Positions 10,256 through 51,400 of a stretch of 64,000 nt of DNA are shown here, in pieces. The DNA comes from Scenedesmus sp. PABB004 (taxonomy: Eukaryota). The stretch is from assembly GCA_014905635.1 (NCBI GenBank), contig CM026547.1, forward strand, positions 434,001 through 498,000, written 5' to 3'. How positions within the stretch are numbered: position 1 is the first letter of the stretch; every line of letters starts with the position of its first letter. Below the pieces are notes generated by a model, which did not search any database, was not told the DNA's origin, and saw nothing but the letters and a program-made list of their open reading frames with translations. A program made the position numbers and the translations under genes.

Positions 10256-10888
10256 GGGCGTCTACCCACGCGCGCCCCGCGCGGCTGCGGGGCGGTGGGC
10301 GCCGAACGGGCGTCGACGCCGCGCCGCACGTCGCTGTCCCGCCTGCTCGGGGCGTGGCTGGACCGGCGCGCGATCGCCGTGCGCCGCGCCGCGGGCGTGT
10401 GGGGTGCGGGCTCGGGCGCGTGCTGCCGGCGCGGGGGTGGGGGCCGCGTAGGTGTTTGAGGCTTGCCCGGCACACTAGCCCTCCCGACGCGCCACCGCCA
10501 CGCGCGGCGCGAGTCGGCCGGCGCTTGGCGCCGCGCAGAACGCGCGCGCCGCCCGGCGCAGGCGTTGCCGGCCCGCGCTGCGCGGCGCTGCCGCCGCCAC
10601 TGCAGGCGGGCGGGCCGGGCACGCCGCCGCACGCCCCCGCGCACGGCCCCGGCGACAGGCGCGCTCGCGCTGGAAGCGGTCGGCGCGGCGCTGGGCAACT
10701 CGGTGCCGCCGCGCCAGGCGGTCAACCGGCGGCGCGCCCGGCCGCCGCGCCCGGCGCGAGCGCACTGCGCGCCCGGGGGCAGGGTGCAGCGCGGCGCTGC
10801 GCCCTGGCCCGCGCCAGCGCTCGCTGCGCAGCCCGCCGCCGACGGCGCCACACCGCGTGCGACGCCCACAGCCCCAGCGCTGCGCACC
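10256..10888 (+). repeat. ~630-bp inverted repeat, copy A (partner 13840-14494)
   Basis: Near-identical to the reverse complement of 13840-14494; ORFs 10463+ and 14286- begin with the same translation. Confidence 0.95.
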
Positions 10889-10923
10889 AGCCCGCCGCGC
10901 ACCAGCCCGGGGCGTGTGGCCAG

Positions 10924-10928
10924 TTACA
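10924..10928 (-). promoter_or_regulatory. TGTAA poly(A) signal of the bestrophin gene
   Basis: ttaca on + strand about 315 nt after the stop; canonical chlorophyte signal. Confidence 0.55.
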
Positions 10929-13765: not shown

Positions 13766-13839
13766 GCCGCCGTGTGCGCGGCGGCAGCGGCGGCGCCTCT
13801 CTCTCCGACGCGAGCGCGGGCGGGCGGGGGCTGGTTGCG

Positions 13840-14494
13840 GGTGCGCAGCGCTGGGGCTGTGGGCGTCGCACGCGGTGCGTCGCACGCGGTGTGGCGCCGT
13901 CGGCGGCGGGCTGCGCAGCGAGGGCCACCGGCGCGGGCCAGGGCGCAGCGCCGCGCTGGACCCTGGCCGCGGGCGCGCGGTGAGCACGTCGGCGCGGCGG
14001 CCGGGCGCGCCGCCGGTTGACCGCCCGGCGCGGCGGCACCGGGTTGCCTAGCACCGCGCCGACCGCTGCCAGCGCGAGCGCGCCTGTCGCCGGGGCCGTG
14101 CGCGGGGGCGTGCGGCGGCGTGCCCGGCCCGCCCGGCCCGCCCGCGCGGTGGCGGCAGCAGCGCTGCGCAGCGCGGGCCGGCACCGCCTGCGCCGGGCGG
14201 CGCGCGCGTTCTGCGCGGCGCCAAGCGCCGGCCGACTCGCGCCGCGCGTGGCGGTGGCGCGTCGGGAGGGCTAGTGTGCCGGGCAAGCCTCAAACACCTA
14301 CGCGGCCCCCACCCCCGCGCCGGCAGCACGCGCCCGAGCCCGCACCCCACACGCCCGCGGCGCGGCGCACGGCGATCGCGCTCCGGCCCAGGCACGCCCC
14401 GAGCAGGCGGGACAGCGACGTGCGGCGCGGCGTCGACGCCCGCTCGGCGCCCACCGCTCCGCAGCCGCGCGGGGCGCGCGTGGGGTAGACGCCC
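13840..14494 (-). repeat. ~650-bp inverted repeat, copy B (partner 10256-10888); immediately upstream of the bestrophin ATG
   Basis: Direct comparison with copy A; differs by substitutions and small indels such as a duplicated cgcggtgcgtcgca. Confidence 0.95.
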
Positions 14495-19007: not shown

Positions 19008-21719
19008 ATGCGTGTCGCCGTTGTGCTCCTGGCCCTCCTGGCCGTGGCCCACGCCGATGTTGCCGGTGCGCGCGCGCGGGCCCGGGGCGGCGGCCGGTGG
19101 CGGCCAGCGGGCCGTCGGCGCGGCGGGCGGCGCGCAGCGCGCGGCGCAGGCAGCGCCGGCGCCGGAGTGCCTGGGTCAGCGCCATGGCCCGCCCAGACGC
19201 CAGCGCAGCAGTCTGGCGGGCTGCAAGCCGGCGGCTGCCCGTCGGGAGGTCCTGGGCGTCCCCTGGGCGCCCCCTGCGCGGCCCGGCGGCGCGAGCCGCC
19301 GGTGCAGCGCGCCGGGGCAGCAGCCCGGGCAGGGCACGCGCGCGGTGACATCGGCCGCAGCGCGAGCTGCGACACTGGCGCGCGCCGGCGGAGCGCGGAA
19401 GCCAGCGACGGGGCGCGGCGGCGCAGAACGCCGCAGCCAGGCAGCACCAGCAGCAGCACCGGCCGGCCGGCGGGCCAGGCAGCATGCTGCGAGGCGGCCA
19501 GAGAGCCAGAAGCCGCAGCGGGCCGGCATCGCTGCGGTGGCATGGCGGGGGCGGGATGGACTGACGTTTTTTTGCCAGGGCGCTGGCCTTGAGCGCCTGC
19601 GGCCGCGCCGCGCAGCCGCCGACGCTGTCGCCGCTGCCGCTGCGCAGGCCGCACCCTCCAGGGCGCCGGCAAGGGCGAGGCCGTGCAGAGCGTGATCGAC
19701 GCCAAGACCAAGTTCATCAACAGCCTGCTGGCCGCCAAGACCGCCGGCAAGGGCGCCACCGCTGCGTCCACCGCGACCAAGGCCAACCCCAGCGCGCCCC
19801 CGACCGTGAAGGCCGAGGCGCCCGCCGCCAAGACCCTGAGCCTGCCCACCTTCACCAAGCCCACCATCACGGTGCCCACCCTCTCGGTGCCCACCGTCTC
19901 CGTGCCCACCGTGAGCGTGGCTGCCGCCGCCAAGCCCGCGGTCGCCGCGGCGACCGCCGACACCGGCAAGGGCGCCAAGACCCTGTCCATCCCGACCATC
20001 TCTCTGGGCAAGGGCCGCAAGCTCCAGGGCACCGGCAAGGGCGAGGCCGTGCAGAGCGTGATCACCGCCAAGACCACCTTCATCAACAGCCTGCTGGCCG
20101 CCAAGACCGCTGGCAAGGGCGCCGCCGCTGCGTCCACTGCGACCAAGGCCAACCCCAGCGCGCCCCCGACCGTGGCCGCCGAGGCGCCCGCCGCCAAGAC
20201 CCTGAGCCTGCCCACCTTCACCAAGCCCAGCATCGACATCAGCAGCATCTTTGGCAAGGGCGCCGCCGCCTCCGCGGTGAGCACCAAGTCTGCCGACAGC
20301 GGCAAGGGCTTCAGCATCAGCATCACCAAGGGCGCCGCGTCCGCTGAGGCCAAGGCCAACCCCAGCGCGCCCCCGACCGTGAAGGCCGAGGCGCCCGCCG
20401 CCAAGACCCTGAGCCTGCCCACCTTCACCAAGCCCACCATCACGGTGCCCACCCTCTCGGTGCCCACCGTCTCCGTGCCCACCGTGAGCGTGGCTGCCGC
20501 CGCCAAGCCCGCGGTCGCCGCGGCGACCGCCGACACCGGCAAGGGCGCCAAGACCCTGTCCATCCCGACCATCTCTCTGGGCAAGGGCCGCAAGCTCCAG
20601 GGCACCGGCAAGGGCGAGGCCGTGCAGAGCGTGATCACCGCCAAGACCACCTTCATCAACAGCCTGCTGGCCGCCAAGACCGCTGGCAAGGGCGCCGCCG
20701 CTGCGTCCACTGCGACCAAGGCCAACCCCAGCGCGCCCCCGACCGTGGCCGCCGAGGCGCCCGCCGCCAAGACCCTGAGCCTGCCCACCTTCACCAAGCC
20801 CAGCATCGACATCAGCAGCATCTTTGGCAAGGGCGCCGCCGCCTCCGCGGTGAGCACCAAGTCTGCCGACAGCGGCAAGGGCTTCAGCATCAGCATCACC
20901 AAGGGCGCCGCGTCCGCTGAGGCCAAGGCCAACCCCAGCGCGCCCCCGACCGTGAAGGCCGAGGCGCCCGCCGCCAAGACCCTGAGCCTGCCCACCTTCA
21001 CCAAGCCCACCATCACGGTGCCCACCCTCTCGGTGCCCACCGTCTCCGTGCCCACCGTGAGCGTGGCTGCCGCCGCCAAGCCCGCGGTCGCCGCGGCGAC
21101 CGCCGACACCGGCAAGGGCGCCAAGACCCTGTCCATCCCGACCATCTCTCTGGGCAAGGGCCGCAAGCTCCAGGGCACCGGCAAGGGTGAGGCCGTGCAG
21201 AGCGTGATCACCGCCAAGACCACCTTCATCAACAGCCTGCTGGCCGCCAAGACCGCTGGCAAGGGCGCCGCCGCTGCGTCCACTGCGACCAAGGCCAACC
21301 CCAGCGCGCCCCCGACCGTGGCCGCCGAGGCTCCCGCCGCCAAGACCCTGAGCCTGCCCACCTTCACCAAGCCCAGCATCGACATCAGCAGCATCTTTGG
21401 CAAGGGCGCCGCCGCCTCCGCGGTGAGCACCAAGTCTGCCGACAGCGGCAAGGGCTTCAGCATCAGCATCACCAAGGGCGCCGCGTCCGCTGAGGCCAAG
21501 GCCAACCCCAGCGCGCCCCCGACCGTGAAGGCCGAGGCGCCCGCCGCCAAGACCCTGAGCCTGCCCACCTTCACCAAGCCCACCATCACGGTGCCCACCC
21601 TCTCGGTGCCCACCGTCTCCGTGCCCACCGTGAGCGTGGCTGCCGCCGCCAAGCCCGCGGTCGCCACGGCGACCGCCGATGCTGGCGCCAAGACCTTCAG
21701 CCTTGGCAAGGGCCTGTGA
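19008..21719 (+). CDS. Secreted Lys/Thr/Ala/Ser/Pro-rich tandem-repeat protein (709 aa), exons 19008-19065 and 19648-21719
   Basis: Signal peptide MRVAVVLLALLAVAHA; phase-1 GT-AG intron joins in frame; strong codon bias; 5'-UTR intron about 18642-19002. Confidence 0.85.
19648..21700 (+). repeat. Coding tandem repeat, 573-bp (191-aa) period plus a shorter 366-bp first unit
   Basis: gcagagcgtgatc recurs at 19685, 20051, 20624 and 21197; units nearly identical. Confidence 0.95.
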
Positions 21720-25385: not shown

Positions 25386-27420
25386 ATGGCCACGCGCCTC
25401 CAGCGGCCGGCGTGTCCCGGCTGCAGCGCCCCTGCACCAGCAGCAGCCAGCACGCGCCGCAGCCGGCGGCCGCGCGTCGCCGCGATGGCGGCGGCCGGCG
25501 CGGCGCAGCAGCAGCCGGCGGCCGCGCCGCCGGGCGGCGCGCCGCCCGCGCCGACGGCCTTCCTGCGCAAGCACCTGCTCCAGCTCGCGCCCTACACGCC
25601 CATCGAGCCGTTCGAGATCCTCTCGGCGCGCTACGGGCGCGCGCCGGGGGACATCGTGAAGCTCGACGCCAACGAAAACCCCTACGGCCCGCCGCCCGAG
25701 GTGCGCGAGGCGCTCGCGGCGATGCCCTTCCCCCACATCTACCCCGACCCGGAGACGCGCCGCCTGCGCGCCGCGCTCGCGGAGTGGACGGGCGTGCCGA
25801 TGGAGCACCTGCTGGTGCGGCGGCGGGCGCCTGCGCGCGGCGGCGCACGCACGCGGCAGCGGCGCGCGCCGCACACGCGCCGCACACGCGCCCGCACGCG
25901 CCGCCGCGCCCGGCAGCGCCCCCGCGCTGCCCCCACGCCGCCGCCGCCGTTGGCACGGCAGGTCGGCTGCGGCGCGGACGAGCTGATCGACCTGCTGATG
26001 CGCTGCACGCTGGAGCCGGGCGACGCGATCGTGGACTGCCCGCCCACGTTCACGATGTATGCGTTTGACGCCGCCGTCAACGACGCGCGCGTCGTCACCG
26101 TGCCGCGGCTGCCGGGCTTTGCGACCGACGTGGAGGGCATCCGGTGCGCCGCCGCCGGGGGCCGCTGCGCGCTGCCGCGCGCGGGCTGGGAGGCGGCCGC
26201 GGCCCGGGCGCAGCAGGCGCAGCGCGGCGCGCGGCGCGCCCCGGCGGCGGGCCGCGGGCGGCGCGCTGCCGCTCACGCGCCGGGGCTGGCTCTCGCAGGC
26301 GCGCCGTCGCGGAGCACGCGCCCAAGATTGTGTTTCTGACCAGCCCCAACAACCCCGACGGCAGCGTCATCAGCGACGCCGACCTGCGCGCGGGTGCGCA
26401 CGCACACACACACACACGCACGCGCCGCGGCCGGCGGGGCGGCGGCCGCCCGCGCACCGGACGCGGCCGCCCAGCCCGCGGCGGGGACGGGCGCGCCCCC
26501 TTCTCTCTCTCTCTCTCTCTCTCCCCGCCCGCGCGCCGTCGCACACGCCTCACGCACGCGGCCCGCCCGCCTGACCGCCCCGCCGCCGCCCGCCCGCCCG
26601 CCCGCCCCCGCGCAGTGCTGGCGCTGCCGGTGCTGGTCGTGCTGGACGAGGCGTACATCGAGTTTGCGACCGACCTGCCCTCCCGCATGGCCTGGGTCGC
26701 GGAGCACCCCAACCTCGTCGTGCTGCGCACGTTCAGCAAGTGCGCCGCGCTCGCGGGGCTGCGCGTGGGGTACGGCGCGTTCCCGCTGGGAATGATCGAG
26801 TACCTCTGGCGCGCAAAGCAGCCGTACAACGTCTCCGTCGCGGCGGAGGTGACGCGGCGGCGCGGCGCGGCGATGCTGGTCGCGGGCGCGGCGGCGCGGC
26901 GGGCGCGCGCGCGCGCGGCGCTGACCCGCGGCCGCGCGCCGCCGGCGGGCGCGCCGCAGGTCGCGGCGTGCGCGGCGCTGACCAACCAGGGCTACCTGGA
27001 CACGGTGCGCGACGCGCTGCTCGCGGAGCGCGCGCGGCTGTTTGCCGCGCTGAGCGGCGTGCCCTGGCTGGAGCCGTTCCCCTCAAACGCCAACTTCATA
27101 CTCTGCAAGGTCGACCAGGTGCGGCGCCCGGGCGCACGCCCAGGCGGCGCGGGCCGCGTCGGCGCCGTGCCGGCGCCGCGCGCGGTCGACGTCTTGGCCC
27201 CCGGCCGCAGCGGCGCCGCCGCCGCGCGGGCGCCGCCCCGGCCCCGACGCGCCGCGCGGCGCCGCAGGGGCGCGACGCCAAGGAGGTCAAGGACGCGCTC
27301 GCGCGGTCGGGCATCATGGTGCGCCACTACGCCAAGGCCGAGCTCTCGGGCTACATCCGCATCAGCGTGGGCAAGCCGGAGCACACCGACGCGCTGATGG
27401 CGGCGATCAACGCGCTGTGA
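25386..27420 (+). CDS. hisC: Histidinol-phosphate aminotransferase (HisC/HISN6), chloroplast, 6 exons
   Basis: [51 protein letters not shown] (PLP lysine), IRISVG. Confidence 0.96.
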
Positions 27421-30764: not shown

Positions 30765-33355
30765 ATGGCGCCGCGGCCCGACTTTGTGTTTGAGGCCCCC
30801 GTGCCCGAGGCCGCGCTGTCGTCGCCGCGGGAGCTCATCAAGGCCTCCCTCTTCGAGGGCAAGCTGCGACTGACCATCGCGGGCGACACGCAGTGAGCCC
30901 CGGCGCTGGCTCGGCCCCCGCCACGCGCCCTCGCGGCCGCCGCTCAATCCTGCTGCGCTCGACCCCTCCTGCCCCCGCGCAGGGAGGTGGCGCTGCCGGA
31001 GGACGCGTTCGTCGACGACGCCTCGGCGCGGCTCGCGGGCCGCACGCTCACCGTGCGCGTGGCGCGGCGCGACCCGCAGGGCCCCGCGATGCAGGCGCGC
31101 ACGCGTTGTGCGCGCTGCCGCGCAGCGCCTGCGCGCCGCGCGTGCGCCGCGCCTGCGCCGCGCTCGGCAGCCGTGGGCGGACGGGGCGCCGCCGAACCGC
31201 CGCACCGCCGCGCGGTCGCTCCCGCGCTGACGCCGACCCCTCCAGGAGAAGCGGCTGTTCAACCCGGACCGCCACCCCGTCGAGCTGGACGTGGCGCTGC
31301 CCAAGGAGCTGATCAACAAGCTGCCCAAGTGCGACCGCGCCACCGGGGGCCGCCGCCGTGCCGACCGCCGCCGCGCCGACCGCACCGCGACGTCGGCCGC
31401 GCCGCGGCGCCACGCGGCGCAGGTCGCCGCTGAGCCCGGCGCACGCGGACAAGACGCCCGCGCAGACGAGCGCGGGCGAGTTCAGCGACTCGCTCATCCA
31501 GGTGCGGCGGCGGCGCCGCGTGCCTGTGCACGCCGGCACACGCATGCGCGTGCGCACGCGCGTCGCCTCGCGCCCACGCGCGCCGCCCGTGCTCGCCGAC
31601 GCCCCACCGCGCACGCTGTGCGGGGCGCACCCGCGCCCGCGCGCGTGCCGCAGGGCGGCCCCGCGGCGGCGTACAAGATGCCGGCGGTCAACCTCGGCAG
31701 CAGCATCGTCACCGCGATGCCGGTGCTGGTCAACCAGGCGCGCGACCGCTGCCGCCGCTGCCGCTGCTCCTGCTGTTGCAGCCCAGCCCGCCGACCGCTG
31801 GCCGCTCCGCCGCCGTCGCCCGCCGCCGCGCGCGTGCGCAGGGCGGCGCCATGGACACGGTGAGCCAGGGCGAGACGGTGACGCGCGTGCCGGGCTCCAC
31901 CGACGTCCGCCACCTCACGGGCCTGGTCGAGTCCCCCGGCGGCGCGCCGCCGAGCGCGGAGGAGCTCGCGTGCCGCCTGCGCGACACCGCGGTGCGCCGG
32001 CGGCGGCGCCACGCCCGCGCGTGCACAGGCTGCACGCGTCCGGCGGCCGGCCGCGGGCGCCGAGCGCTCCGCGCCGCGCAGGTGCACGACCTGCCACCGC
32101 CCGGCGCGAGCGTGGAGCAGGGCGCCAGGCCGTTTGAGACCGAGGCGACCTACGACGAGGCGGCGGCCGCGCCCGCGCGCCCCGGCGCGGCGCCCGCGCC
32201 CGCGGGCGACGACGACGAGGCGCGCGCGCTCGCGACCGGCGCGCGCGGCGAGAAGGTCAGGTGAGGCGGGCTGCACGCGCGCCGGGGAGCGCTGGCGGGC
32301 CAGCCCTGCACGCGCACCGCCGCCGCGGCACGCGCGACCACCCCGCGCCGCATGGCCGTGCCTGCAGGTCCGACTATGTCGGCGCCGGCCCCAAGGTCGG
32401 CATGGAGTACGTCGAGCGCACCGCCGCGGCCGCGTACGTCGGCTCCGTGACGGGTGCGGCGGCGCCACCGGCCCTGCCAGGGCGCCGCGCCGTGCCCTGC
32501 GCTGCCGCCGCGAGCGCCGCGGCGCGGCGGCCCGCGTGCGCAGGCGCGGAGCCCATCAGCTCGCTCAAGACGCCCGGCGCGGCGCTGTGCGACCTCTGCG
32601 GCTGCGCGCCCTGCCAGTGCCACCACATGAGGCGCACCGGCGGCGCCGGCAACAACCCGTACGAGGTGCGGCGGTGGGGGCAGATGCGGCAGAGGCAGGC
32701 GCTCCGCACGGCACGCCGCACGCCAGGGCGCTGCCGCAGCGCTGCCCGGCGGCCGCGCGCCGACGCCGCGGCCGCCCTCCCCCTCCTGCAGCTGACCGCG
32801 CCGGAGACCAAGCGCGGCGGCAAGCCGGCCATCCACAGCCACGCACACGCAGTCACCGGCACGCGCGGCCACGCCAAGCAGGCGCGGCCGCGCGCGGGCC
32901 GGGCGGCACCGGCCAGCCGGTGGGGGGCCGGCGCGCGCGAGCTGAGCTGGCTGCCTGCGCCGCCCGCCGCAGTTTGACCCGCACCACGTGGGCGTCGGCG
33001 CGCGCCTGGCCGACTTCAAGGGCAACGTGCCGGGTGCGCGGCGGGCGGCGCGCTGGCGCGCTGCGCCGGGCGTGCCCGCGCGCCTGCGGTGGCGGCGGCC
33101 GACCCCGAGCGCCCGCGCCGCTGCTTGCTTGCCGCGGCGTCGCGCCGCGCCGCGCCCGCAGAGGGCCACGGCGACGCCGGCGACCCGCGCGACGTCGGCG
33201 CGGCGCACGCGGCGCACGGCGCGCACGGCGCGACGCACGCCGGCGGCGCGCCGATCGAGATGGGCGGCCCCGGCAAGCGCCACGGCTCGGAGGCCGCGAG
33301 CGGCGCGCGCACCGCGGGCGGGCACAAGACGACCTTCCCCGGCGCGCTCGGCTGA
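30765..33355 (+). CDS. 12-exon protein with an N-terminal HSP20/alpha-crystallin-like domain, a CxxCxCxxCxC cluster and a His/Gly-rich tail
   Basis: All 11 introns splice in frame (3 GC donors); IKASLFEGKLRLTI..EVALPEDAFVDDASARLAGRTLTVRV resembles ACD strands; CDLCGCAPCQC. Confidence 0.7.
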
Positions 33356-34096: not shown

Positions 34097-35636
34097 TCAC
34101 TGCACCCAGGGAGGGGCGGCGAGGGCGACCGGCGCAAAATGCTGGGTCAGGATGTGCGGCGACACCCCGGGCCGGAGGGGCATGCGCAGCGCGCCGGGCG
34201 CCGCCAGCTCCAGCGCCTGCTGCTGGTTGTTAATCGTGATGGCCGCCAGCAGGTTGTTGGCGCGGTCGCACAGGCAGAGGCCGTGGACCAGGTAGTGCCG
34301 CCAGCGGCTGGCAAGCACCGCGAACGGGTTGTCAAAGGTGCGCTGGCCGCCCCCAGGTCCCGTGCCGCTGCTGGGGAACCGCAGCCGCTGCTGCGGGGTC
34401 ACCAGGGCCTCCACGGCCTCTCGTTGCGCCGGCTGCTGGAAGGCCGCGGTCCAGCTCCGGAGGGTGAAGTCCAGCGCGCTGCCAGCGCCCCAGCTCAGGC
34501 TCTGGTGCTCGCTGGGCTGGCCCGGGCGCATGCCGAACCAGCAGTAGCCCAACGCCATGAGCTTGTAGCCCTTGCGCAGGCAGCAGCCGGGCAGCACGAT
34601 GCCCTCGAGGAACTCGGCGGTGCCCCCGTGGCGGGTGACGTACGCCGTCCCGGCCGCGTCGTCGGCGCGCCAGCCCAGCAGCTCCTTGAAGAGCACCCAA
34701 CCGACGGCGGGCACGTTGCTGGTGGTGAAGTCGGGGATGAGCGCAGAGGAGCGGGCCCGGTGCTGCGGCCGGGTGACGTGCCTGTGGTCAAACTTCACGC
34801 AGCCATCGCCGTCCCAGAGGCCGGCGATGAGCAGCCGCAGCGTGAGGCAGACCGGGGGCCCAATGTCCATGATGGGAGCGGCCAGGATGGCGCTCAGGAT
34901 GGGGTTGTAGGCCAGGATGGCGTCGACGCGGGTCCGCATCATCTCAATCTGCGGCCCCTCGTCGACGTCGCCCCAGTCGTCCACAATGAACATATCCGGC
35001 AGCTGCGGCACCGCCTCGTCCGGCATCGCCACAAAGCCCTGCGCCGCGCCGGCGACCATCGCCAGGGACAACAGCTTGGGCCCGATGGTTGGCGCGAGCG
35101 GCAGCAGCTCCTGCGCCACCCACACGGCGGCCGCGCCGTACGCGACCAGCGCGTGGGGGTGCTCGCCGTTGTTGAACAGACCCACGTTGACGAGGTGGTC
35201 GTGCGGCACCTCCACCACGACAAACAGGTTGGGGTCGGCGGCCCACGGCGGCGCGTAGGCGAGCAGCCGCAGCCGCAGCTCGGCCAAGAAGGTTTGGGCG
35301 CTCTGCGCAGGAGCGGGGCGCCCTCAGCGCCGCCCGGTCCGCCACCCCGCGCCCGCGCGCGCGCCCGCGCGCGCGCGCGCCCGCCGCGCGCGGCTGACCG
35401 CGCCGCCGCACCTGGCTGAAAACCACCATGTTGCCAGCCAGCCAGCCCTCATGCCAAGCCGAGCCGTCGGCGGCCCAAAAGGCAGCCGCGTGCAGGAAGA
35501 AGCAGGACCTCAAGAGCACAGGCCAGAAAGCCTCGGGGTAGCCGTGCGCAGCAAAGCACTCCTGCAGTTTGTTGAACCAACCCGCAGACTCCACGGAGGT
35601 GTTGGCAATGCTGTCGGGGGTCAACTGCGCTGCCAT
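34097..35636 (-). CDS. Putative single-motif LAGLIDADG endonuclease-domain protein (476 aa), exons 35636-35412 and 35302-34097
   Basis: Phase-0 GT-AG intron joins ...[16 protein letters not shown]...; [15 protein letters not shown]...FTTSN...LFKELLG...[15 protein letters not shown] follows the I-CreI pattern; lower GC than neighbours. Confidence 0.72.
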
Positions 35637-35677
35637 TGCGGCGCTGCCGGGCGCCCTGCGGCGGCGACGGCGAGCGT

Positions 35678-36113
35678 TGGCGCTGCGCCGCCGCTTGACC
35701 GCCGCGTCGTCGCGCGGCCCCGCGCCGCACGCCAGCCGCGCTGCGCTTCGCGGCCGTAGCGCACCGTGATCAGCAGCTTCGGCGCGCGGGCGCGGCGCGA
35801 GAGTGTCGCGGCCGGCCGCGAGCGCCGGCCACGCGAGCAGCGGCGGGCGCGCCGCGCCTGGGGTGCGGCGTGGCGGGCGGCGAGCGTGGCAGGGGTGGAG
35901 GGCGTCAGCCCGTCGAGGTGTGTGGCCGTGCAGGAGTGGTGCGGGGCGGCCCAGCGCGGCGGTGCGGGGCGGCGCTGCGCCGCCGCTTGACCGCCGCGTC
36001 GCCGCGCGGCCCTGCGCCGCACGCCCGCCGCGCTGCGCTTCGCGGCCGGAGCGCACCGTGATCAGCAGCTTCGGCGCGCGGGCGCGGCGCGCGGGAGTGT
36101 CGGCCGCGAGCGC
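35678..36113 (+). repeat. ~145-bp direct repeat pair (35678-35825 / 35970-36113) upstream of the LAGLIDADG gene
   Basis: ggcgctgcgccgccgcttgaccgccgcgtcg...gcaccgtgatcagcagcttcggcgcgcgggcgcggcgcg present twice. Confidence 0.9.
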
Positions 36114-36152
36114 GGGGCGCGCGAGCTGCAGCGGGCGCGCCGGGCCTCCCGA

Positions 36153-36207
36153 CTGCACCAAGGGCGGGGCGGCGACCGGCGCAAACTGCTGGGTTAGGAT
36201 GTGCGGC
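36153..36207 (+). repeat. Direct repeat of the LAGLIDADG gene 3' end (34099-34160)
   Basis: actgcacc.aggg.ggggcggcga...ccggcgcaaa.tgctgggt.aggatgtgcggc; translates [18 protein letters not shown] vs [20 protein letters not shown]. Confidence 0.9.
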
Positions 36208-36241
36208 CGGGCCCCGTCCAAAGCTGCCGTCATGTTACAGT

Positions 36242-36625
36242 CCGCCGCCGGACGCGCCGCGCGCCGCGCTGCGCCTGCTGCGCCCAGGCCGCGGCCGCCT
36301 CCCAGCCCGCGCGCGGCGGCGGCGGCGCACCGGATGCCCTCCACGTCGGTCGCAAAGCCCGGCAGCCGCGGCACGGTGACGACGCGCGCGTCGTTGACGG
36401 CGGCGTCAAACGCGTACATCGTGAACGTGGGCGGGCAGTCCACGATCGCGTCGCCCGGCTCCAGCGTGCAGCGCATCAGCAGGTCGATCAGCTCGTCCGC
36501 GCCGCAGCCGACCTGCCGTGGCAACGGCAGCGGTAGATGTGGGGGAAGGGCATCGCCGCGAGCGCCTCGCGCACCTCGGGCGGCGGGCTGTACGGATTTT
36601 CGTTGGCGTCGAGCTTCACTACGTC
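36242..36625 (-). pseudogene. Inverted partial copy of hisC (source 25650-26249, with ~200-bp internal deletion)
   Basis: [29 protein letters not shown] and [15 protein letters not shown]...VEGIR, plus intron sequence. Confidence 0.93.
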
Positions 36626-36627
36626 AG

Positions 36628-37360
36628 CCGTCTCGGAGCTGACGTACGCGTCCGCGGCCATGCCGACCTTGGGGCCCGCGCCGACATAGTCGGACCTGCA
36701 GGGCAGGCATGGCCAGGCGGCGCGGGGTCGGTCGCGCGTGCCGCGGCGGCGGTGCGCGTGCAGGGCTGGCCCGCCAGCGCTCCCCGGCGCGCGTGCAGCC
36801 CTCGGCGCCGGCGGCCGGCCGCCGGACGCGTGCGGCCTCCTGTGCACGCGCGGGCGGGGCGCCGCCGCGGCGCACCGCGGTGTCGCGCAGGCGGCGCGCG
36901 AGCTCCTCCGCGCTCGGCGGCGCGCCGCCGGGGGCGTCGACCAGGCCCGTCAGGTGGCGGACGTCGGTGGAGCCCGGCACGCGCGTCACGGTCTCGCCCT
37001 GGCTCACCGTGTCCATGGCGCCGCCCTGCGCGCGCGCGGCGGGCGGCGGCGGAGCGGCCAGCGGTCGGCGGGCTGGGCCGCCGCCGCTGCCGGCGGCGGC
37101 GGCGGCAGCGGGCGCGCGCCTGGTTGACCAGCACCGGCATCGTGGTGACGATGCTGCTGCCGAGGTTGACCGCCGGCATCTTGTACGCCGCCGCGAGGCC
37201 GCCCTGCGGCACGCGCGCGGCCGCGCGCCGCACAGCGTGCGCGGCGGGGCGTCAGACAGCGGGGGCGGTGCGCGCGGGCGCGAGGCGACACGCGCGCGCA
37301 CACGCGTGTGTGTGCGCGGCGTGGCACAGGCACGCGGCGGCGCGGCCGCACCTGGATGAG
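36628..37360 (-). pseudogene. Inverted partial copy of the HSP20-like gene (source about 31494-32453, one exon deleted), fused to the hisC fragment
   Basis: YKMPAVNLGSSIVTTMPVLVNQ, GGAMDTVSQGETVTRVPGSTDVRHLTGLV and SDYVGAGPKVGM exons with their introns. Confidence 0.93.
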
Positions 37361-37741
37361 GTTGACCGCGCACTAGGTGGGTGACCGCCGGCGGCAGCGC
37401 ACGCTGACGCCCGCCGCGGGCGGGCGCGGCGCAGCAGCCGGCGGGACAGAGGCGCCAAGGTCGCGTTTGAGGTGCTGCGCCCGGCCGCCGCGGTGCGCGC
37501 ACTGCCGGCTGCGCTGCGTGCTCTGACCCGCCCGACGACTACCAGCCGCGCCCCGACGGCCGCTGCGCCGTTTAGCCCACCCGTAGTCTCGCGTCCCAGC
37601 AAGCTCCAGGAACTCCACCCCAACCTCTGCTGCGGCGGCGGGCGGCGCCGGCGCCCGGTCCGCCGCTCGCGCGCGTGGCCGGCGCTGGCCAGCTGGAGCC
37701 ACCCGGCAGCCCCGGACGCAGCGCGGGCACCCCGCGCGCCG

Positions 37742-37852
37742 CCGGCGGCAGCAGCGGCGGCCTGGGCAGCCCGCGCGCCGTCGCCGGCGGCAGCGGCGGC
37801 CTGGGCAGCCTGCGCGCCGCAGGCAGCAGCAGCGGCGGCCTGGGCAGCCCGT
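37742..37852 (+). repeat. Three ~35-bp tandem units (gcagcggcggcctgggcagcc core)
   Basis: Direct inspection. Confidence 0.8.
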
Positions 37853-37989
37853 GCGCGGCAGGTGAGCCCAAGTAACACGCGGGCCCACATCCGCTGCGAG
37901 TGCTGTCGAGCGCGGCCGGGCCCCGTCCAAAGCTGCCGCCGCTGCGTGCCAGCGCCGATCAGCGCCGCGCGCGCGCCGTCCAGGCCACC

Positions 37990-40900
37990 ATGCAGCAGTC
38001 CCTGCGCGGCGCGGCCCGGAGCGCGAGCGCGAGCGCCCCGCGTGCCACGCTCCACGCTGCCCCGCGACTGGCGGGCGCGTCCGCGCGCGGCGCGCGGGCC
38101 ACGCCAGCCCTGGCGCGCCAGGGCGGCCCCCGGAGCCATGCCACAATCGTGAAGGCCGTCGCGGAGGCTGTGGAGAACAGGACCGACAACCAGGGCCTGG
38201 TGCGCGCAATTGGCGCGCCGCGGCGCCAATGGGCGCGGCGTGGCGGCCATGCGGGCCGGCGCGGGGCGCGCGCGCGCCGCTGCCGCTGCCGCCCGGCGCT
38301 GCCCCCCGCCGCCGCCGCGGCCCTCCCGCTCCGGCGCCCGGCCCGCCCTCCCGGCCGCCGGCCGCCCTCGCCGGCCGTATCGCGCCGCGCCGCCCGCCGC
38401 CCACGCTCGCTGCGCCGCCGCGCCAGGCGCTGTACGAGGTCGATCCGCAGCTGCTGCAGCACCGCGACCACCTGGACTACCGGTGGAACCAGTTCTGCGA
38501 CGTCAAGGGCAACATCGAGCGCAACGTCGGCTCGCTCGCCGAGTTTGCCAAGGCGCGGCGCGGCGCGGCCGCGCGCGGGAGCCCTGGCGCGCGCCCGCGC
38601 CGCGCTCCCTCCCGCAGGGCGCCGCGCCGCGCCGCCGCGCGCGCCGCGCCGCCCTCACGCGCGCCCCGCCGCCGCCTTGCCCGCCTCCCGCCCCGCTGTC
38701 CCTCCCGCCTGCTGTCCCGCGCTCAGGGCTATGAGAGCTTTGGCATTGTGCGCAAGGGCAACAAGACCGTCTACCGCGAGTGGGCGCCCGGCGCGCAGGC
38801 CTGCGCCCTCATCGGTGCGGCGCGCGCCCGCCTGCCGGCGCGCGGCGCGGCGCGGCGGCGCGGCGGCGCAGGGCGCGGCGCGGCGCAGGGCGCGGCGCGC
38901 CGGCGCGCGTGGCTCGGGCGCCGCCACCGACGCCGACGCGCGGCGCCGCGTGGGCCGCGCCGCGCAGGCGACTTCAACAACTGGGAGCCCACATGGATGA
39001 ACAAGGATGAGTGGGGCGTGTGGAGCGTGGAGCTGCCCGACGGTGCGCGGCCGCCAGCAGCGGTAGCAGCAGCGCCGGGGGCCGCAGCGCCAGCGGAGAC
39101 AGCGCCAGCGGGACAGCAGCAGCGGCAGCGGCGAGCAGCGGCCCTCGCCGCCGCGCGCGCGCCCCTCACCGCGCCCCGCCCCTCCCTCCGCCGCCGCCGC
39201 CGCGCCGCGCGCGGCGCGCAGGCCCCGACGGCGCGCCCGCGATCCCGCACGGCAGCCGCGTCAAGGTGCGCATGCAGAGCTTTGGCGACTGGTGGGTCGA
39301 CCGCGTGCCCGCGTGGGTGCGCTATGCGACCATCCCAGAGGGCGTCATGGGCGCCAAGTACGATGGCGTGCACTGGGACCCGCCGCGCGGCGAGCGCCAC
39401 GTGTGGTAAGTTGTTGCCCACGCCGCGCGCCGGCAACGCGCGCGCGCCGGCGGCGCCGCGCGCGCGCGCCGTGGACGCGCCGCCTCGCGCGGCGACGGCC
39501 CGCCGCGGCCGCGCCGGCCCACGCACGCGCCCGCGCCGCGCCTTTTGCGCCGCGCCGCGCAGGCGCAACAAGCGCCCCGGGCGGCCGTCCAGCCTGCGCA
39601 TCTACGAGGCCCACGTGGGCATGAGCGGCGAGGACGAGCGCGTGAGCACGTACGCCGAGTTTCGCGACAACGTGCTGCCCCGCATCGCCAAGCAGGGCTA
39701 CACCGCGGTGCAGCTCATGGCCATCCAGGCGCGCGGCTGCGCGGCGGCAGCAGCGGCGCGGCGGCGGCGGCGGCGGGCAGGGCAGGGCAGGGCAGGGCAG
39801 TCGGCGGGGCCCGCGGCTGCCCTCACACTCTCGCCTCCACCCCTCGCCCTCACCCCACACGCCCGCCACCCCTGTCACGCCCACCCACACCCACCCACAC
39901 ACCACACCCACCCACCCACCCACACCGCAGGAGCACGCGTACTATGCGTCGTTCGGGTACCACGTGACCAACCCCTTTGCGCCGAGCAGCCGCAGCGGCA
40001 ACCCGGAGGACCTCAAGTCCCTCGTCGATGCGGCGCACGGGCTGGGCCTCGTGGTGCTGCTCGACGTCGTGCACAGCCACATCAGCTCCAACGCCGACGA
40101 CGGCCTCGCGGGTGCGGCGGCGCTCGCGCTTGCGGGGGCGCGCGCGCGTGTGCTCCTGTCTGCGCGTGCGCGGCGCGCGGCCGCCCGCCGAGCCGCCGCT
40201 GAGCCGCCGAGCCGCCGCCCGCGCGTCCCGCCGCGGCCGGCCGCGCAGGCTTTGACCTCGGCCAGGCCCAGGACTGCAACTACTTCCGCTCCGGCGAGGC
40301 GGGCTACCACAAGCTCTGGGACTCCCGGTGCGCGCGGCGGCGGCGGCGCCGCCCGCCCGCCCGCCGCCGCCCGCCCGCCCGCGCACGCCGCCGCACGCCC
40401 CCGCCCGCTCTCCCGCGCACCCGCCCGCCATCCGCCCCACCCTCCCGCCGCGCCGCGCCGCCGCGCCGCCGCCAGGCTGCTCAACTACGGGCACTGGGAG
40501 GTTCAGCGCTACCTGCTGTCCAACCTGCGCTACTGGCTGGAGGAGTTCCAGTTTGACGGCTTCAGGTGCGGGCTGGCCCCGCCGCGCTGCCCGCCTCTCC
40601 CTCTCCCTCCCTCGCTCCCTCCCTCCCTCTCAGCCTCCCGCCCTGCCTCTCCCTCCCCTGCCTCTCCCTCTCCCTCTCCCTCCCCTGCCGCCTCTCCCTC
40701 CCCGCCGCGCGCCGCCCCCGCTCACCGCCCGGCCGCGCTCCCCTAAACCCTGCAGGTTTGACGGCGTGACGAGCATGCTGTACCACCACCACGGCATCGA
40801 CACCGCCTTCAGCGGCGGCTACCACGAGTACTTTGGCCCCCAGGCGGACGTCGAGGCGGCGGTGTACCTCATGATGGCAAACGCGATGATTCACGACATC

Positions 40901-48471: not shown

Positions 48472-51400
48472 ATGATGGCGCGCCCAGCGGTGGCGCTGTG
48501 GCTTTTGTTAGCACTCCTCGCCAGCGGCGGGCGCCCAGCCACGGCATCACGCGGGGCGCGGCTGCTGCTGCAGGAAGCAGCCCTCCCCGAGCCGTCCCAG
48601 CCGCCGCCCGACCCGTGCTTGGGAAAATATTGCGGCCAGGGTAGCTGCTCTGGCGGCACCTGCGTGTGCGCCGACGGCTGGACCGGCGCGGCGTGCGACC
48701 TGCGTGAGTGCCGTGCGCAGCCCTTGGCCAGCGAGGCAGCGTGCCCGACAGCTCACCCGCGACCGCCGCCGCTGCACTTGCCGCAGCCCCAGACCCCTGC
48801 GCGGGCAAGAGCTGCGGTCAGGGCAGCTGCAGCGGCGGCACCTGCGTGTGCTCAGACGGCTGGAGCGGTGCAGCGTGTGAGACAGGTGTGTGCGCGCCAG
48901 CTGCACGTGACAGCCCTGGTCGCGGCCCGCCTGCCTGCCCGCTGATCATTCGCCGCTGCGGCGCGCACGCCGCAGCCCCAGACCCCTGCGCGGGCAAGAG
49001 CTGCGGTCAGGGCAGCTGCAGCGGCGGCACCTGCGTGTGCTCAGACGGCTGGAGCGGTGCAGCGTGTGAGACAGGTGTGTGCGCGCCAGCTGCACGTGAC
49101 AGCCCTGGTCGCGGCCCGCCTGCCTGCCCGCTGATCATTCGCCGCTGCGGCGCGCACGCCGCAGCCCCAGACCCCTGCGCGGGCAAGAGCTGCGGTCAGG
49201 GCAGCTGCAGCGGCGGCACCTGCGTGTGCTCAGACGGCTGGAGCGGTGCAGCGTGTGAAACAGGTGCGTGCGCGCCAGCTGCACGTGACAGCCCTGGTCG
49301 CGGCCCGCCTGCCTGCCCGCTGATCATTCGCCGCTGCGGCGCGCACGCCGCAGCCCCAGACCCCTGCGCGGGCAAGAGCTGCGGTCAGGGCAGCTGCAGC
49401 GGCGGCACCTGCGTGTGCTCAGACGGCTGGAGCGGTGCAGCGTGTGAGACAGGTGTGTGCGCGCCAGCTGCACGTGACAGCCCTGGTCGCGGCCCGCCTG
49501 CCTGCCCGCTGATCATTCGCCGCTGCGGCGCGCACGCCGCAGCCCCAGACCCCTGCGCGGGCAAGAGCTGCGGTCAGGGCAGCTGCAGCGGCGGCACCTG
49601 CGTGTGCTCAGACGGCTGGAGCGGTGCAGCGTGTGAGACAGGTGTGTGCGCGCCAGCTGCACGTGACAGCCCTGGTCGCGGCCCGCCTGCCTGCCCGCTG
49701 ATCATTCGCCGCTGCCACGCGCACGCCGCAGCCCCAGACCCCTGCGCGGGCAAGAGCTGCGGTCAGGGCAGCTGCAGCGGCGGCACCTGCGTGTGCTCAG
49801 ACGGCTGGAGCGGTGCAGCGTGTGAGACAGGTGTGTGCGCGCCAGCTGCACGTGACAGCCCTGGTCGCGGCCCGCCTGCCTGCCCGCTGATCATTCGCCG
49901 CTGCCACGCGCACGCCGCAGCCCCAGACCCCTGCGCGGGCAAGAGCTGCGGTCAGGGCAGCTGCAGCGGCGGCACCTGCGTGTGCTCAGACGGCTGGAGC
50001 GGTGCAGCGTGTGAGACAGGTGTGTGCGCGCCAGCTGCACGTGACAGCCCTGGTCGCGGCCCGCCTGCCTGCCCGCTGATCATTCGCCGCTGCCACGCGC
50101 ACGCCGCAGCCCCAGACCCCTGCGCGGGCAAGAGCTGCGGTCAGGGCAGCTGCAGCGGCGGCACCTGCGTGTGCTCAGACGGCTGGAGCGGTGCAGCATG
50201 CGAGATCCCTCCAGCACAGCTAGCGCAGGCAGCTGGACCGGAGCTGCCGCCTGCAGCCGAGCAGCCAGCACAGGGAGCTGCGCCAGAGCTGCCGCCTGCG
50301 GCCGAGCAGCCAGCGCAGGCGGCCGCATCGCAGCCGCCTCCTGCAGCTGAGCAGCCAGATCCGGCGGCTGCACCATTGCTGCCACCTGCAGCCGAGCAGC
50401 CAACGCCGGTGGCTGCGCCAGTGCTGCCGCCTGCAGCCGAGCAGCCAGCTCCGGCGGCTGCGCCAGAGCTGCAACCTGCAGCCGAGCAGCCAATGCCGGC
50501 GGCTGCACAGGAGCCGTCGCCGGCAGCCGAGCAGCCAATGCCGGCGGCTGCACCGGAGCCGTCGCCGGCAGCCGAGCAGCCAGCGCCGGCGGCTGCACCG
50601 GAGCCGTCACCGGCAGCCGAGCAGCCAATGCCGGCGGCTGCACAGGAGCCGTCGCCGGCAGCCGAGCAGCCAATGCCGGCGGCTGCACCGGAGCCGTCGC
50701 CGGCAGCCGAGCAGCCAGCGCCGGCGGCTGCACCGGAGCCGTCACCGGCAGCCGAGCAGCCAATGCCGGCGGCTGCACAGGAGCCGTCGCCGGCAGCCGA
50801 GCAGCCAATGCCGGCGGCTGCACAGGAGCCGTCGCCGGCAGCCGAGCAGCCAATGCCGGCGGCTGCACCAGAGCCGTCGCCTGCAGCCGAGCCGCCAGCA
50901 CAGCCAGGTGTGCCGCCCACGGCCGATCAGGCAGCGTCCCTGATGTCAACGGGCAGCAGAAGCGAGCCGGCGCAGCAGCCCATGGCCGCCAGGTCGCAGC
51001 ACCCAGTTGAGCCCGTGGCGGGGCCCGCCTCGCCGGCGCCAGCGCCGCAGCCAGAGCCCTTGTCGTCGCCACCACCTGGCAACGAGGCGGCGCTGCAGGC
51101 TGCGGTGGGCAGCATCAGCAGCGGTGCCTCAACCACCTTCACGTGGGCCCTGGAGGTGACCGGAGGCGGCAGCCTTGCCACCGCGCCCGACGCCGACCTG
51201 CCAATCCCGTTCGAAGTGACGGCCACGCGCAGCGAGGGCACGCGCTCAGCGTTTGTCGCCGGCGCCGTGACGGTCCGCAACACAGGCGGCGCCGGAGCCG
51301 ACATCACCGGCGTGTCCGTTGCAGCGGGCGGCGCGCGGCAGGCGCTGAGCGACTGCGCCGCCACGCTCGCCCCGGGCGCGACGACGAGCTGCGCCTTTAA

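Follow-up and report, generated by a model that had tools for sequence, protein, structure and literature searches.

A mosaic of about 1.2 kb (36152-37369), assembled from diverged and broken copies of four nearby donors, lies in the genome of Scenedesmus sp. PABB004. It is probably non-functional filler, a scar left by a single complex accident during repair or replication, rather than a functioning gene or a homing element. The mosaic was located by self-BLAST of positions 35501-38200 against the whole window, the 64,000-nt stretch of CM026547.1 within which all coordinates are counted, and it occupies the intergenic region between two divergent genes, a nuclease-like gene on the minus strand and a branching-enzyme gene on the plus strand. 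If this reading is right, the locus preserves a clean and fully traceable natural case of multi-template-switch repair in a green alga of approximately 80% G+C, with every donor still alongside. Events of this kind, which leave patchwork "filler DNA" where breaks were repaired, are already known, also from plants; the mosaic opens no new question, and its use is as an illustration and as a caution for gene annotation.

Self-BLAST and global alignments resolve the mosaic into at least seven pieces from four donors, four of them inverted and two direct (Table 1). The four donors are consecutive genes around the mosaic, all within 11.7 kb, in agreement with the initial annotation, which had described a mosaic of neighbouring-gene fragments drawn from about 11 kb and had correctly recognised hisC and the branching-enzyme gene (SBE). 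TIGR01141 is the best NCBIfam family for the mosaic copy (E 3e-11) as well as for both hisC donor ORFs (E 4e-24 and 1e-38), the scores falling short of the cutoff set for whole proteins since each scan covered a single ORF piece, and the branching enzyme carries a CBM_48 domain (a weak match) and an alpha-amylase domain. The name "HSP20-like", given at first to another donor, finds no support: this hypothetical protein, HT031_000084 (P0005), matches no Pfam family at E<=10 and no NCBIfam family, and has no usable PDB match and no Atlas match. The adjoining region 37370-37911 has no donor within the window and no Pfam match.

Table 1. Positions in the window of the mosaic pieces, their donors and neighbouring features, with the corresponding self-BLAST matches.
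Feature	Position	Strand	Structure or donor	Self-BLAST match
LAGLIDADG-motif ("nuclease-like") gene	34097..35636	-	exon 1 35636-35412, GT-AG intron, exon 2 35302-34100 plus stop	
Two ~200-nt repeat copies	35645-35859 and 35940-36147		86% identical, spacing 288-292 nt	
Copy of nuclease-like CDS 3' end, ~62 nt	36152..36207	-	donor 34099-34160, same orientation	36152-36207 with 34099-34160, direct, 83.9% over 62 columns, E 6e-13
Exact 27-mer from upstream of branching-enzyme ATG	36203..36229	+	direct copy of 37912-37938	
12-nt filler	36230..36241		contains TGTAA on minus strand, 36235-36239	
hisC fragment B	36242..36533	-	donor 25941-26250, inverted	36242-36551 with 26250-25924, inverted, 91.2%, E 2e-132
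hisC fragment A, part of preceding exon	36532..36625	-	donor 25650-25743, inverted	36532-36625 with 25743-25650, inverted, 94.7%, E 7e-37
HT031_000084 fragment 2, intron and exon start	36625..36801	-	donor 32268-32456, inverted	36625-36801 with 32456-32268, inverted, 84.1%, E 4e-59
HT031_000084 fragment 1	36802..37360	-	donor 31493-32063, inverted	36784-37360 with 32082-31493, inverted, 89.2% over 595 columns, E 0.0
12-nt outer-junction patch	37358..37369		identical to 37162-37173, 196 bp away inside mosaic; donor 31684-31695	
hisC donor region, in intact hisC gene	25650..26250	+		
HT031_000084 donor region	31493..32456	+	hypothetical protein (P0005)	
27-mer donor or flanking twin	37912..37938	+	upstream of branching-enzyme ATG 37990	

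On the plus strand, the inverted hisC sequence precedes the inverted HT031_000084 sequence, so the pieces are not collinear with their donors; a decayed duplication of a single inverted block is ruled out, as it would give the opposite fragment order. The two large pieces total 384 nt (hisC) and 736 nt (HT031_000084). Fragment B of hisC spans the final 20 nt of one intron, the complete exon after it, in which 1 of 188 nt is mismatched, and the start of the next intron, and its 17-bp gap falls in the intron part. The hisC content covers positions ~77-137 of the 349 in the family model and, in addition, a short piece of the exon upstream, and a sequence without the positions beyond ~137 cannot be a working aminotransferase. 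Fragment 1 of HT031_000084 comprises the final 12 nt of one exon, the intron and exon that follow, and the start of a further intron. Fragment 2 carries an 18-bp in-frame gap, and its join to hisC fragment A keeps the reading frame. In the copy of the nuclease-like 3' end, a gap of 6 nt leaves the frame intact, and homology ends at the donor stop codon. The 27-mer is identical at 27/27 positions to its twin, which sits 52-78 nt 5' of the branching-enzyme ATG (log10 of the matches expected in the window, -8.7); an extension of this homology to the start-codon region, at ~12/17 nt by eye, was judged too weak.

The junctions were all read from the assembly sequence. Global alignments place two large skips in the donors, of 199 bp in hisC (25742-25940) and 204 bp in HT031_000084 (32064-32267), in addition to the smaller gaps of 17 bp (26157-26173) and 18 bp (32410-32427). 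The hisC skip covers a portion of an exon and the greater part of an intron, and the HT031_000084 skip takes out a whole exon together with 18 and 6 nt of intron. Neither is intron-precise or GT..AG-ended, and intron sequence is kept elsewhere in the fragments. Copying was therefore at the DNA level, as the initial annotation, which also noted a deletion of ~200 bp per fragment, had argued from retained introns, and intron-precise loss by an RNA route is ruled out, given that the skips are not at splice sites. The in-frame join of HT031_000084 to hisC, the 27-bp identity, the minus-strand TGTAA and the copy of the 3' end of the supposed endonuclease gene, all noted at that stage, were likewise recovered; across the in-frame junction, residues 71-102 of the publicly annotated protein P0001 match 36667-36572 at 100% and ungapped in tblastn.

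Neighbouring pieces overlap by 5, 2, ~3, 1 and 3 nt, including 5 nt between the 27-mer and the nuclease-like 3'-end copy and 3 nt between the 12-nt patch and HT031_000084 fragment 1, whereas random junctions in the window average 1.04 nt. The probability that five such overlaps sum to at least 14 nt is 0.011, and that they sum to at least 11 nt, with the blurred junction counted as 0, is 0.05. One junction is blurred by substitutions, and the enrichment in microhomology is modest given the 80% G+C of the genome.

Serial template switching, which was among the origins first proposed for the mosaic, is supported by several features: pieces that are out of donor order and in both orientations, junctions with short microhomology, a 12-mer of templated sequence where the mosaic ends, and donors that are all local. 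A broken end or collapsed fork would have primed low-processivity DNA synthesis, which would then have moved from one nearby template to another, with a few microhomologous bases at each switch. Read from left to right on the plus strand, this synthesis would have copied 62 nt of the nuclease-like 3' end and then 27 nt of the branching-enzyme upstream region, added 12 nt of untraceable filler, copied hisC inverted in two pieces with 199 bp skipped, and copied HT031_000084 inverted in two pieces with 204 bp skipped; a 12-nt snap-back patch would have preceded re-joining of the end, and neutral drift would subsequently have taken the copy to ~96% identity. From this anatomy we infer that there was one event, in which direction synthesis ran, and that the mechanism was of the MMBIR or SDSA type. 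At least two successive small duplications with later deletions would yield an identical end state.

Features of the MMBIR model described in PMC2621351 include discontinuous duplications, deletions or inversions, microhomology of ~2-5 bp, nearby templates, and a pre-existing low-copy repeat near the endpoints. The mosaic resembles MMBIR/FoSTeS-type events in its discontinuous duplications with skips and inversions, its close templates, its junction microhomology of 1-5 nt, and its small templated end patch, and would resemble them in its adjoining low-copy repeat if that repeat pre-dated the event (PMC2621351). It differs in being old, fixed and ~96% identical in the intergenic DNA of a green alga, whereas those events are fresh somatic or germline variants; moreover, the mechanism is here read from anatomy alone, and three jumps of 196-204 bp are without explanation. 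In comparison with polymerase-theta templated insertions, the pieces of 384 and 736 nt are far longer than is typical.

Across 1096 aligned positions, the copy differs from its donors at 47, corresponding to 95.7% identity. The two big fragments contain 10/383 and 37/713 mismatches (Fisher p 0.059), and the latter falls to 19/546 when the low-complexity stretch 31505-31677 is left out (p 0.57). Exon parts are no better conserved than intron parts, and 6 of 146 aligned residues are changed in the copy, from 12 nucleotide mismatches in the same four exon parts. Such frequent amino-acid changes in exons that are no better kept than introns fit neutral drift, and the substitutions look neutral. 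The same divergence bears on whether misassembly produced the mosaic as a chimeric consensus. DNA of such extreme G+C, with local repeats, is indeed hard to assemble, but a mis-join of real reads would match the donors exactly, and so the 47 mismatches and the clean gaps of 17, 18, 199 and 204 bp count against an artefact, as does a contig spanning 4.85 Mb; this explanation is considered highly unlikely.

The identities also bear on whether the mosaic was built stepwise, through a series of independent, small local duplications followed by deletions, and not in one episode of template switching. Segment identities spread from 84% to 100%, with the 27-mer identical and the 62-nt nuclease-like piece at 84%, as might be expected of pieces acquired separately, and an unrelated local inverted duplication is present elsewhere in the window. 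The segments, however, are too short for differences in identity to mean much, the two large fragments show no significant difference in mismatch rate, and the pieces abut without spacer and with overlaps of 1-5 nt. A stepwise origin is unlikely, although it deserves some weight. The other inverted duplication (10256-10891 and 13837-14494) lies on both sides of a bestrophin-like gene that has no nuclease in its vicinity, suggesting that such events are not special to the mosaic locus.

A gene-fragment-capturing transposon, either Pack-MULE-like or Helitron-like, or a chimeric retrocopy might alternatively have brought the fragments together. The exact 27-bp direct repeat flanks 36230-37911 and so resembles a target-site duplication, TGTAA is found close to where the hisC piece ends, and Pack-MULE and Helitron captures are likewise mosaics of intron-bearing fragments from several genes. 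The usual target duplications of DNA transposons are nevertheless shorter than 27 bp, and the terminal inverted repeats and transposase of such captures are not seen here: among the 85 inverted pairs in 35500-38300, the 25 longest (21-36 nt, 70-92% complementarity) are all imperfect matches in G+C-rich, low-complexity DNA and none brackets the mosaic, while no transposase or reverse-transcriptase domain occurs in the ORFs scanned. The donors, furthermore, are all immediate neighbours, and a retrocopy in particular is at odds with retained introns, the lack of an A-run, and skips that are not GT..AG. An origin of this kind is extremely improbable, and the gene-fragment capture that the initial annotation had offered as an alternative to template switching is not supported.

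The public annotation contains a gene model, HT031_000085, whose 644-aa protein (P0001) fuses the mosaic to the nuclease-like ORF. The fusion depends on one GC donor and on two cryptic sites, an acceptor at 36667 and a donor at 36572 inside a hisC exon, and is most likely a gene-prediction artefact, in which case the annotation turns a repair scar into a "hisC-domain" fusion protein. Because the junction is in frame and native splice sites persist, a chimeric transcript is possible. A stronger proposal is that the mosaic supplies real 5' exons and that HT031_000085 is a young chimeric gene, in which HT031_000084 and hisC pieces are spliced to the nuclease-like ORF. Exactly this protein is present in the public annotation, the fragment junction is in frame, and the parts could be linked through the native hisC donor site and an AG located 19 nt before the ATG; in exon-shuffling chimeric genes formed by DNA-level duplication, too, pieces of two genes are joined in frame, introns included, ahead of a third ORF. 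In contrast to such genes, the model needs non-native splice sites, two of them cryptic and one a GC donor, and the substitutions look neutral. In alignments inspected by eye, hisC exon A read straight past the 199-bp skip runs into a stop codon, and with native sites the frame is broken because the skipped exon changes the phase. The young chimeric gene is accordingly very unlikely. TGTAA is the green-algal poly(A) signal, and the minus-strand copy at 36235 could end a transcript before the nuclease-like ORF, which is a further point against the fusion; the motif occurs 5 times in the window against 3.5 expected, and so its count is ordinary and its position is suggestive without being evidence by itself.

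The initial annotation called the gene downstream of the mosaic an endonuclease. The ORF, whose protein is 475 aa long, possesses one LAGLIDADG-type motif with the acidic residue kept, and this motif is conserved across a three-member family (the ORF, P0002 and P0003). A profile of the family searched against PDB gave five matches, three of them LAGLIDADG proteins (I-MsoI, E 0.029; 4lq0, 0.56; I-PanMI, 0.99), which are weak and confined to the motif, and the Atlas feature matches of the ORF are to LAGLIDADG clusters at 0.84-0.86, under the 0.9 bar. Two AlphaFold models show an alpha-beta-beta-alpha-beta-beta-alpha order after the motif, but at pLDDT 36.1 and 37.1. No Pfam family, whether LAGLIDADG, Hint or zinc-finger, matches the ORF, P0002 or P0003 at E<=10, and the ORF has no match in PHROGs. 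The endonuclease label is hence a weak one, for which the motif and weak profile matches speak and curated families do not. An intein splicing block in the N-terminal part, suggested by a likeness, was dropped since there is no Pfam Hint or intein match at E<=10.

Relatives of the ORF are few. Two, both remote, were found among 1.84 billion representative proteins; a word-based protein search returned the window's own protein only, a profile search added no relative, and none was confirmed in metagenome contigs scanned with alignment A2 and with P0002. Within the window, tblastn of P0001 revealed no second copy, the only extra piece being the 62 nt of 3' end. Exon 2 of the gene has a host-like GC3 of 0.94.

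The initial annotation had further likened the locus to WHO elements, with hisC as the target. WHO elements of Torulaspora and Lachancea, relatives of HO, are described as lying directly downstream of FBA1 and replacing its 3' half in place, and among their reported features are intein-like and zinc-finger domains and clusters of nuclease genes (PMC7282813; bioRxiv 10.64898/2026.08.13.744650). The likeness is that a gene with a LAGLIDADG-type motif adjoins fragments of a housekeeping gene. Here, however, the hisC piece is an internal, N-terminal part, inverted, 10 kb from the intact hisC gene, broken by the 199-bp skip, and fused to a fragment of the unrelated HT031_000084; the nuclease-like ORF has a single LAGLIDADG-type motif and no Hint or zinc-finger match; and neither in-place replacement of a 3' half nor a nuclease-gene cluster is seen in the window. 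Judged from the sequence, the analogy with hisC as target fails.

A broader proposal holds that an active selfish LAGLIDADG-type nuclease triggered the repair, or that a WHO-like homing cycle targeting hisC left the mosaic behind. The mosaic does lie directly upstream of the ORF and contains a copy of its 3' end, and the motif, the PDB profile matches and the sub-threshold Atlas matches lean the same way. The arrangement of the hisC piece, the absence of Pfam matches, and the low pLDDT nevertheless tell against it, along with a spliceosomal intron, host-like GC3, and the lack of a close paralogue among the predicted proteins searched, and it is regarded as quite improbable. It is a long shot that the ORF, intron-bearing and host-adapted, represents an undescribed, tiny family of nuclear nucleases, active now or once, that cuts near its own locus and left the mosaic, with its copy of the 3' end of the nuclease gene, as the scar of repairing that break. 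If true, a green alga would carry in its nucleus a selfish nuclease system of neither the intron nor the intein type, with a loose parallel in WHO elements. The orphan LAGLIDADG-motif nuclear gene is a more curious object than the mosaic, and the locus would be important only if an active nuclease were tied to the rearrangement.

Directly beside the mosaic, between it and the nuclease-like ATG, lies the duplicated stretch of ~200 nt, which may stem from the same event as the mosaic.

The pieces of the mosaic upstream of the nuclease-like open reading frame (ORF) were resolved by BLASTN of 35501-38200 against the window and by gapped alignments, with the window sequence and protein databases as the evidence base. 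G+C is about 80% across the whole window, and its genes carry spliceosomal introns. The patchwork of neighbouring-gene fragments proposed in the initial annotation is real, and its pieces and donors are listed in the table; the large mosaic-donor matches have E-values of 0.0 to 7e-37. Homology to the 3' end of the nuclease-like ORF stops at the donor stop codon, and the twin of the 27-mer precedes the branching-enzyme ATG (37990) by 52-78 nt (log10 expected count of the match in the window, -8.7). The exact 27-mer pair, which flanks 36230-37911, can be read as another short templated piece or as a flanking duplication. Beside the 27-mer donor, upstream of the branching-enzyme gene, a 39-bp unit is present in three to four tandem copies (37718-37860).

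Coordinates of the mosaic pieces, the nuclease-like gene and the public gene model
Feature	Window coordinates	Donor or source	Orientation	Details
Nuclease-like gene	ATG 35636; stop 34097-34099		minus strand	GT-AG intron 35411-35303
Copy of nuclease-like ORF 3' end (last 62 nt)	36152-36207	34099-34160	direct	6-nt gap
27-mer	36203-36229	37912-37938	direct	27/27 identical
12-nt filler	36230-36241			minus-strand TGTAA inside; no donor found
hisC piece	36242-36533	26250-25941	inverted	
hisC piece	36532-36625	25743-25650	inverted	
HT031_000084 piece	36625-36801	32456-32268	inverted	
HT031_000084 piece	36802-37360	32063-31493	inverted	
12-mer	37358-37369	37162-37173	direct	repeat within mosaic
HT031_000085 model (644 aa)	37179-37120, 37025-36873, 36664-36572, 36509-36330, 35654-35412, 35302-34100			joined parts

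Each large donor copy lacks about 200 bp, as had been claimed: 199 bp of hisC (25742-25940) and 204 bp of HT031_000084 (32064-32267), as well as smaller losses of 17 and 18 bp. The two large skips do not follow intron borders: that in hisC took out half of an exon together with the greater part of an intron, that in HT031_000084 a whole exon plus a few adjacent intron bases. Other intron sequence is kept. Intron retention together with skips that ignore intron borders indicates copying at the DNA level, as first proposed, or, less likely, from an unspliced RNA template; no A-run is present. The two donor skips and the 12-nt patch, which comes from 196 bp away, are three jumps of nearly equal size.

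On the plus strand, the inverted hisC pieces precede those of HT031_000084, and the two small pieces are in direct orientation. A decayed inverted block duplication was rejected, as it would leave the opposite order. The reversed order and the two direct pieces imply at least four templates, used separately, and the donors are consecutive neighbouring genes, all within 11.7 kb (initially put at about 11 kb). Abutting pieces overlap by 5, 2, about 3, 1 and 3 nt, against a mean of 1.04 nt for random junctions drawn from the window; the probability of the five overlaps summing to at least 14 is 0.011, or 0.05 with the substitution-blurred junction scored zero. The outer-junction 12-mer shares 3 nt with the last fragment, has its source in that same fragment, and is a snap-back patch of the kind left by low-processivity repair synthesis. 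Directly adjoining the mosaic, a stretch of about 200 nt is duplicated at a spacing of 288-292 nt. PMC2621351 characterizes MMBIR-type events by discontinuous duplications interspersed with deletions and inversions, by 2-5 bp of microhomology and by low-copy repeats nearby; the mosaic shows the first two, and the adjoining duplicated stretch may correspond to the third. The serial template switching suggested at the outset is supported as the probable origin by order, orientations, junction overlaps, templated 12-mer and local donors. Gene-fragment capture, also suggested, finds no such backing in its transposon form: among the best 25 of 85 inverted pairs (the longest), all imperfect and G+C-rich, none forms terminal inverted repeats around the mosaic, and the scanned ORFs showed neither a transposase nor a reverse-transcriptase domain.

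To the donor ORFs and the mosaic copy alike, Pfam assigns Aminotran_1_2 and NCBIfam gives TIGR01141 hisC as the top model, supporting the hisC identity of the donor. The copy spans model positions 77-137 of 349 and, ending at about position 137, cannot encode an aminotransferase. A weak CBM_48 match and a downstream alpha-amylase catalytic domain likewise support the branching-enzyme label. The donor previously called HSP20-like is HT031_000084 (protein P0005, 433 aa), and the HSP20 label was not supported: no Pfam family at E<=10, no NCBIfam family, no meaningful PDB match and no usable Atlas match was found.

The nuclease-like ORF carries one LAGLIDADG-type motif and finds no family in Pfam or PHROGs. 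Only two remote relatives emerged from 1.84 billion representative proteins, P0002 (E 5.5e-9) and P0003 (E 2.4e-5), unnamed proteins from metagenome and SRA assemblies that resemble it at the motif and in several further blocks, the C-terminus among them. A three-member profile gave five PDB matches at E<=10, three of them LAGLIDADG enzymes over the motif region (I-MsoI, E 0.029; 4lq0, 0.56; I-PanMI, 0.99). The motif and these weak profile matches make the ORF a candidate endonuclease. Atlas feature matches to LAGLIDADG clusters reached 0.84-0.86, under the acceptance bar of 0.9. Two low-confidence AlphaFold models (pLDDT 36.1 and 37.1) both hint at an alpha-beta-beta-alpha-beta-beta-alpha run after the motif. 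The GC3 of exon 2 is 0.94, like host genes, which marks it as a resident nuclear gene rather than a recent arrival.

For the idea that this gene triggered the mosaic, in the manner of yeast WHO elements with hisC as target, there remain its proximity and the 62 nt of its own 3' end among the pieces. As described in PMC7282813 and bioRxiv 10.64898/2026.08.13.744650, WHO elements encode intein-like nucleases with LAGLIDADG and zinc-finger domains, lie directly downstream of FBA1, swap its 3' half for a usable copy and form clusters. Here, in contrast, the hisC piece is internal, inverted and broken, lies 10 kb from intact hisC and is fused to a piece of another gene; the ORF has no Hint or zinc-finger match, and the window holds only one nuclease-like gene. 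Those defining features of WHO elements that were tested are not seen at the locus. Another local inverted duplication, some 640 bp long (10256-10891 and 13837-14494, 91.7% identical), whose arms flank a minus-strand bestrophin-like gene (Pfam Bestrophin_2, E 3e-25 and 2e-21), has no nuclease gene nearby, and so local inverted copying occurs in the window absent such a gene. A nuclease-driven or WHO-like origin is not supported. Just inside one arm of this duplication lies a minus-strand TGTAA (10924-10928).

The copy matches its donors at 1049 of 1096 aligned positions (95.7%), with mismatches concentrated near the central junction. Exon parts (93.8-99.5% identity) show no consistent advantage in conservation over intron parts (89-98%). 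Of the 16 nucleotide differences in exon parts, 12 fall in four parts (146 residues), where six residues are changed, and four in a fifth, which by eye also shows residue changes, as neutral drift would give. The difference in mismatch rate between the two large fragments is not significant (Fisher p 0.059; 0.57 without one low-complexity stretch), which is compatible with one event.

A protein search recovered the product annotated in the window itself (P0001), KAF8072426.1, 'hypothetical protein HT031_000085 [Scenedesmus sp. PABB004]', encoded on a 4.85-Mb contig. Over residues 71-102 it aligns to 36667-36572 with 100% identity and no gap, confirming the in-frame hisC/HT031_000084 junction. 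The splice sites of the model are only partly native: the first piece must be followed by a GC donor, and the acceptor used at 36667 and the donor used at 36572, within a hisC exon, are both cryptic. By eye from the alignments, native sites lose the frame because the skipped exon alters phase, and hisC exon A read on past the 199-bp skip reaches a stop. Every reading frame is open in this DNA, and the fusion is read as a likely product of ab initio prediction. The mosaic appears to be a scar of repair or replication, of a known kind, fixed and drifting, that the annotation has wrongly taken into a gene. HT031_000085 uses as its first coding exon a stretch whose donor counterpart (31678-31737) is intron in the HT031_000084 model, and the two public models conflict over this matching sequence.

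Two tandem arrays also occur in the window. One (19647-21679) has a period of about 573 bp, has copies 93-99% identical and sits where the window's G+C is lowest; the other (48600-50900) repeats about every 189 bp, with offsets at 189 and its multiples, copies 78-94% identical to one another and a second register of 45-90 bp near 50217-50900.
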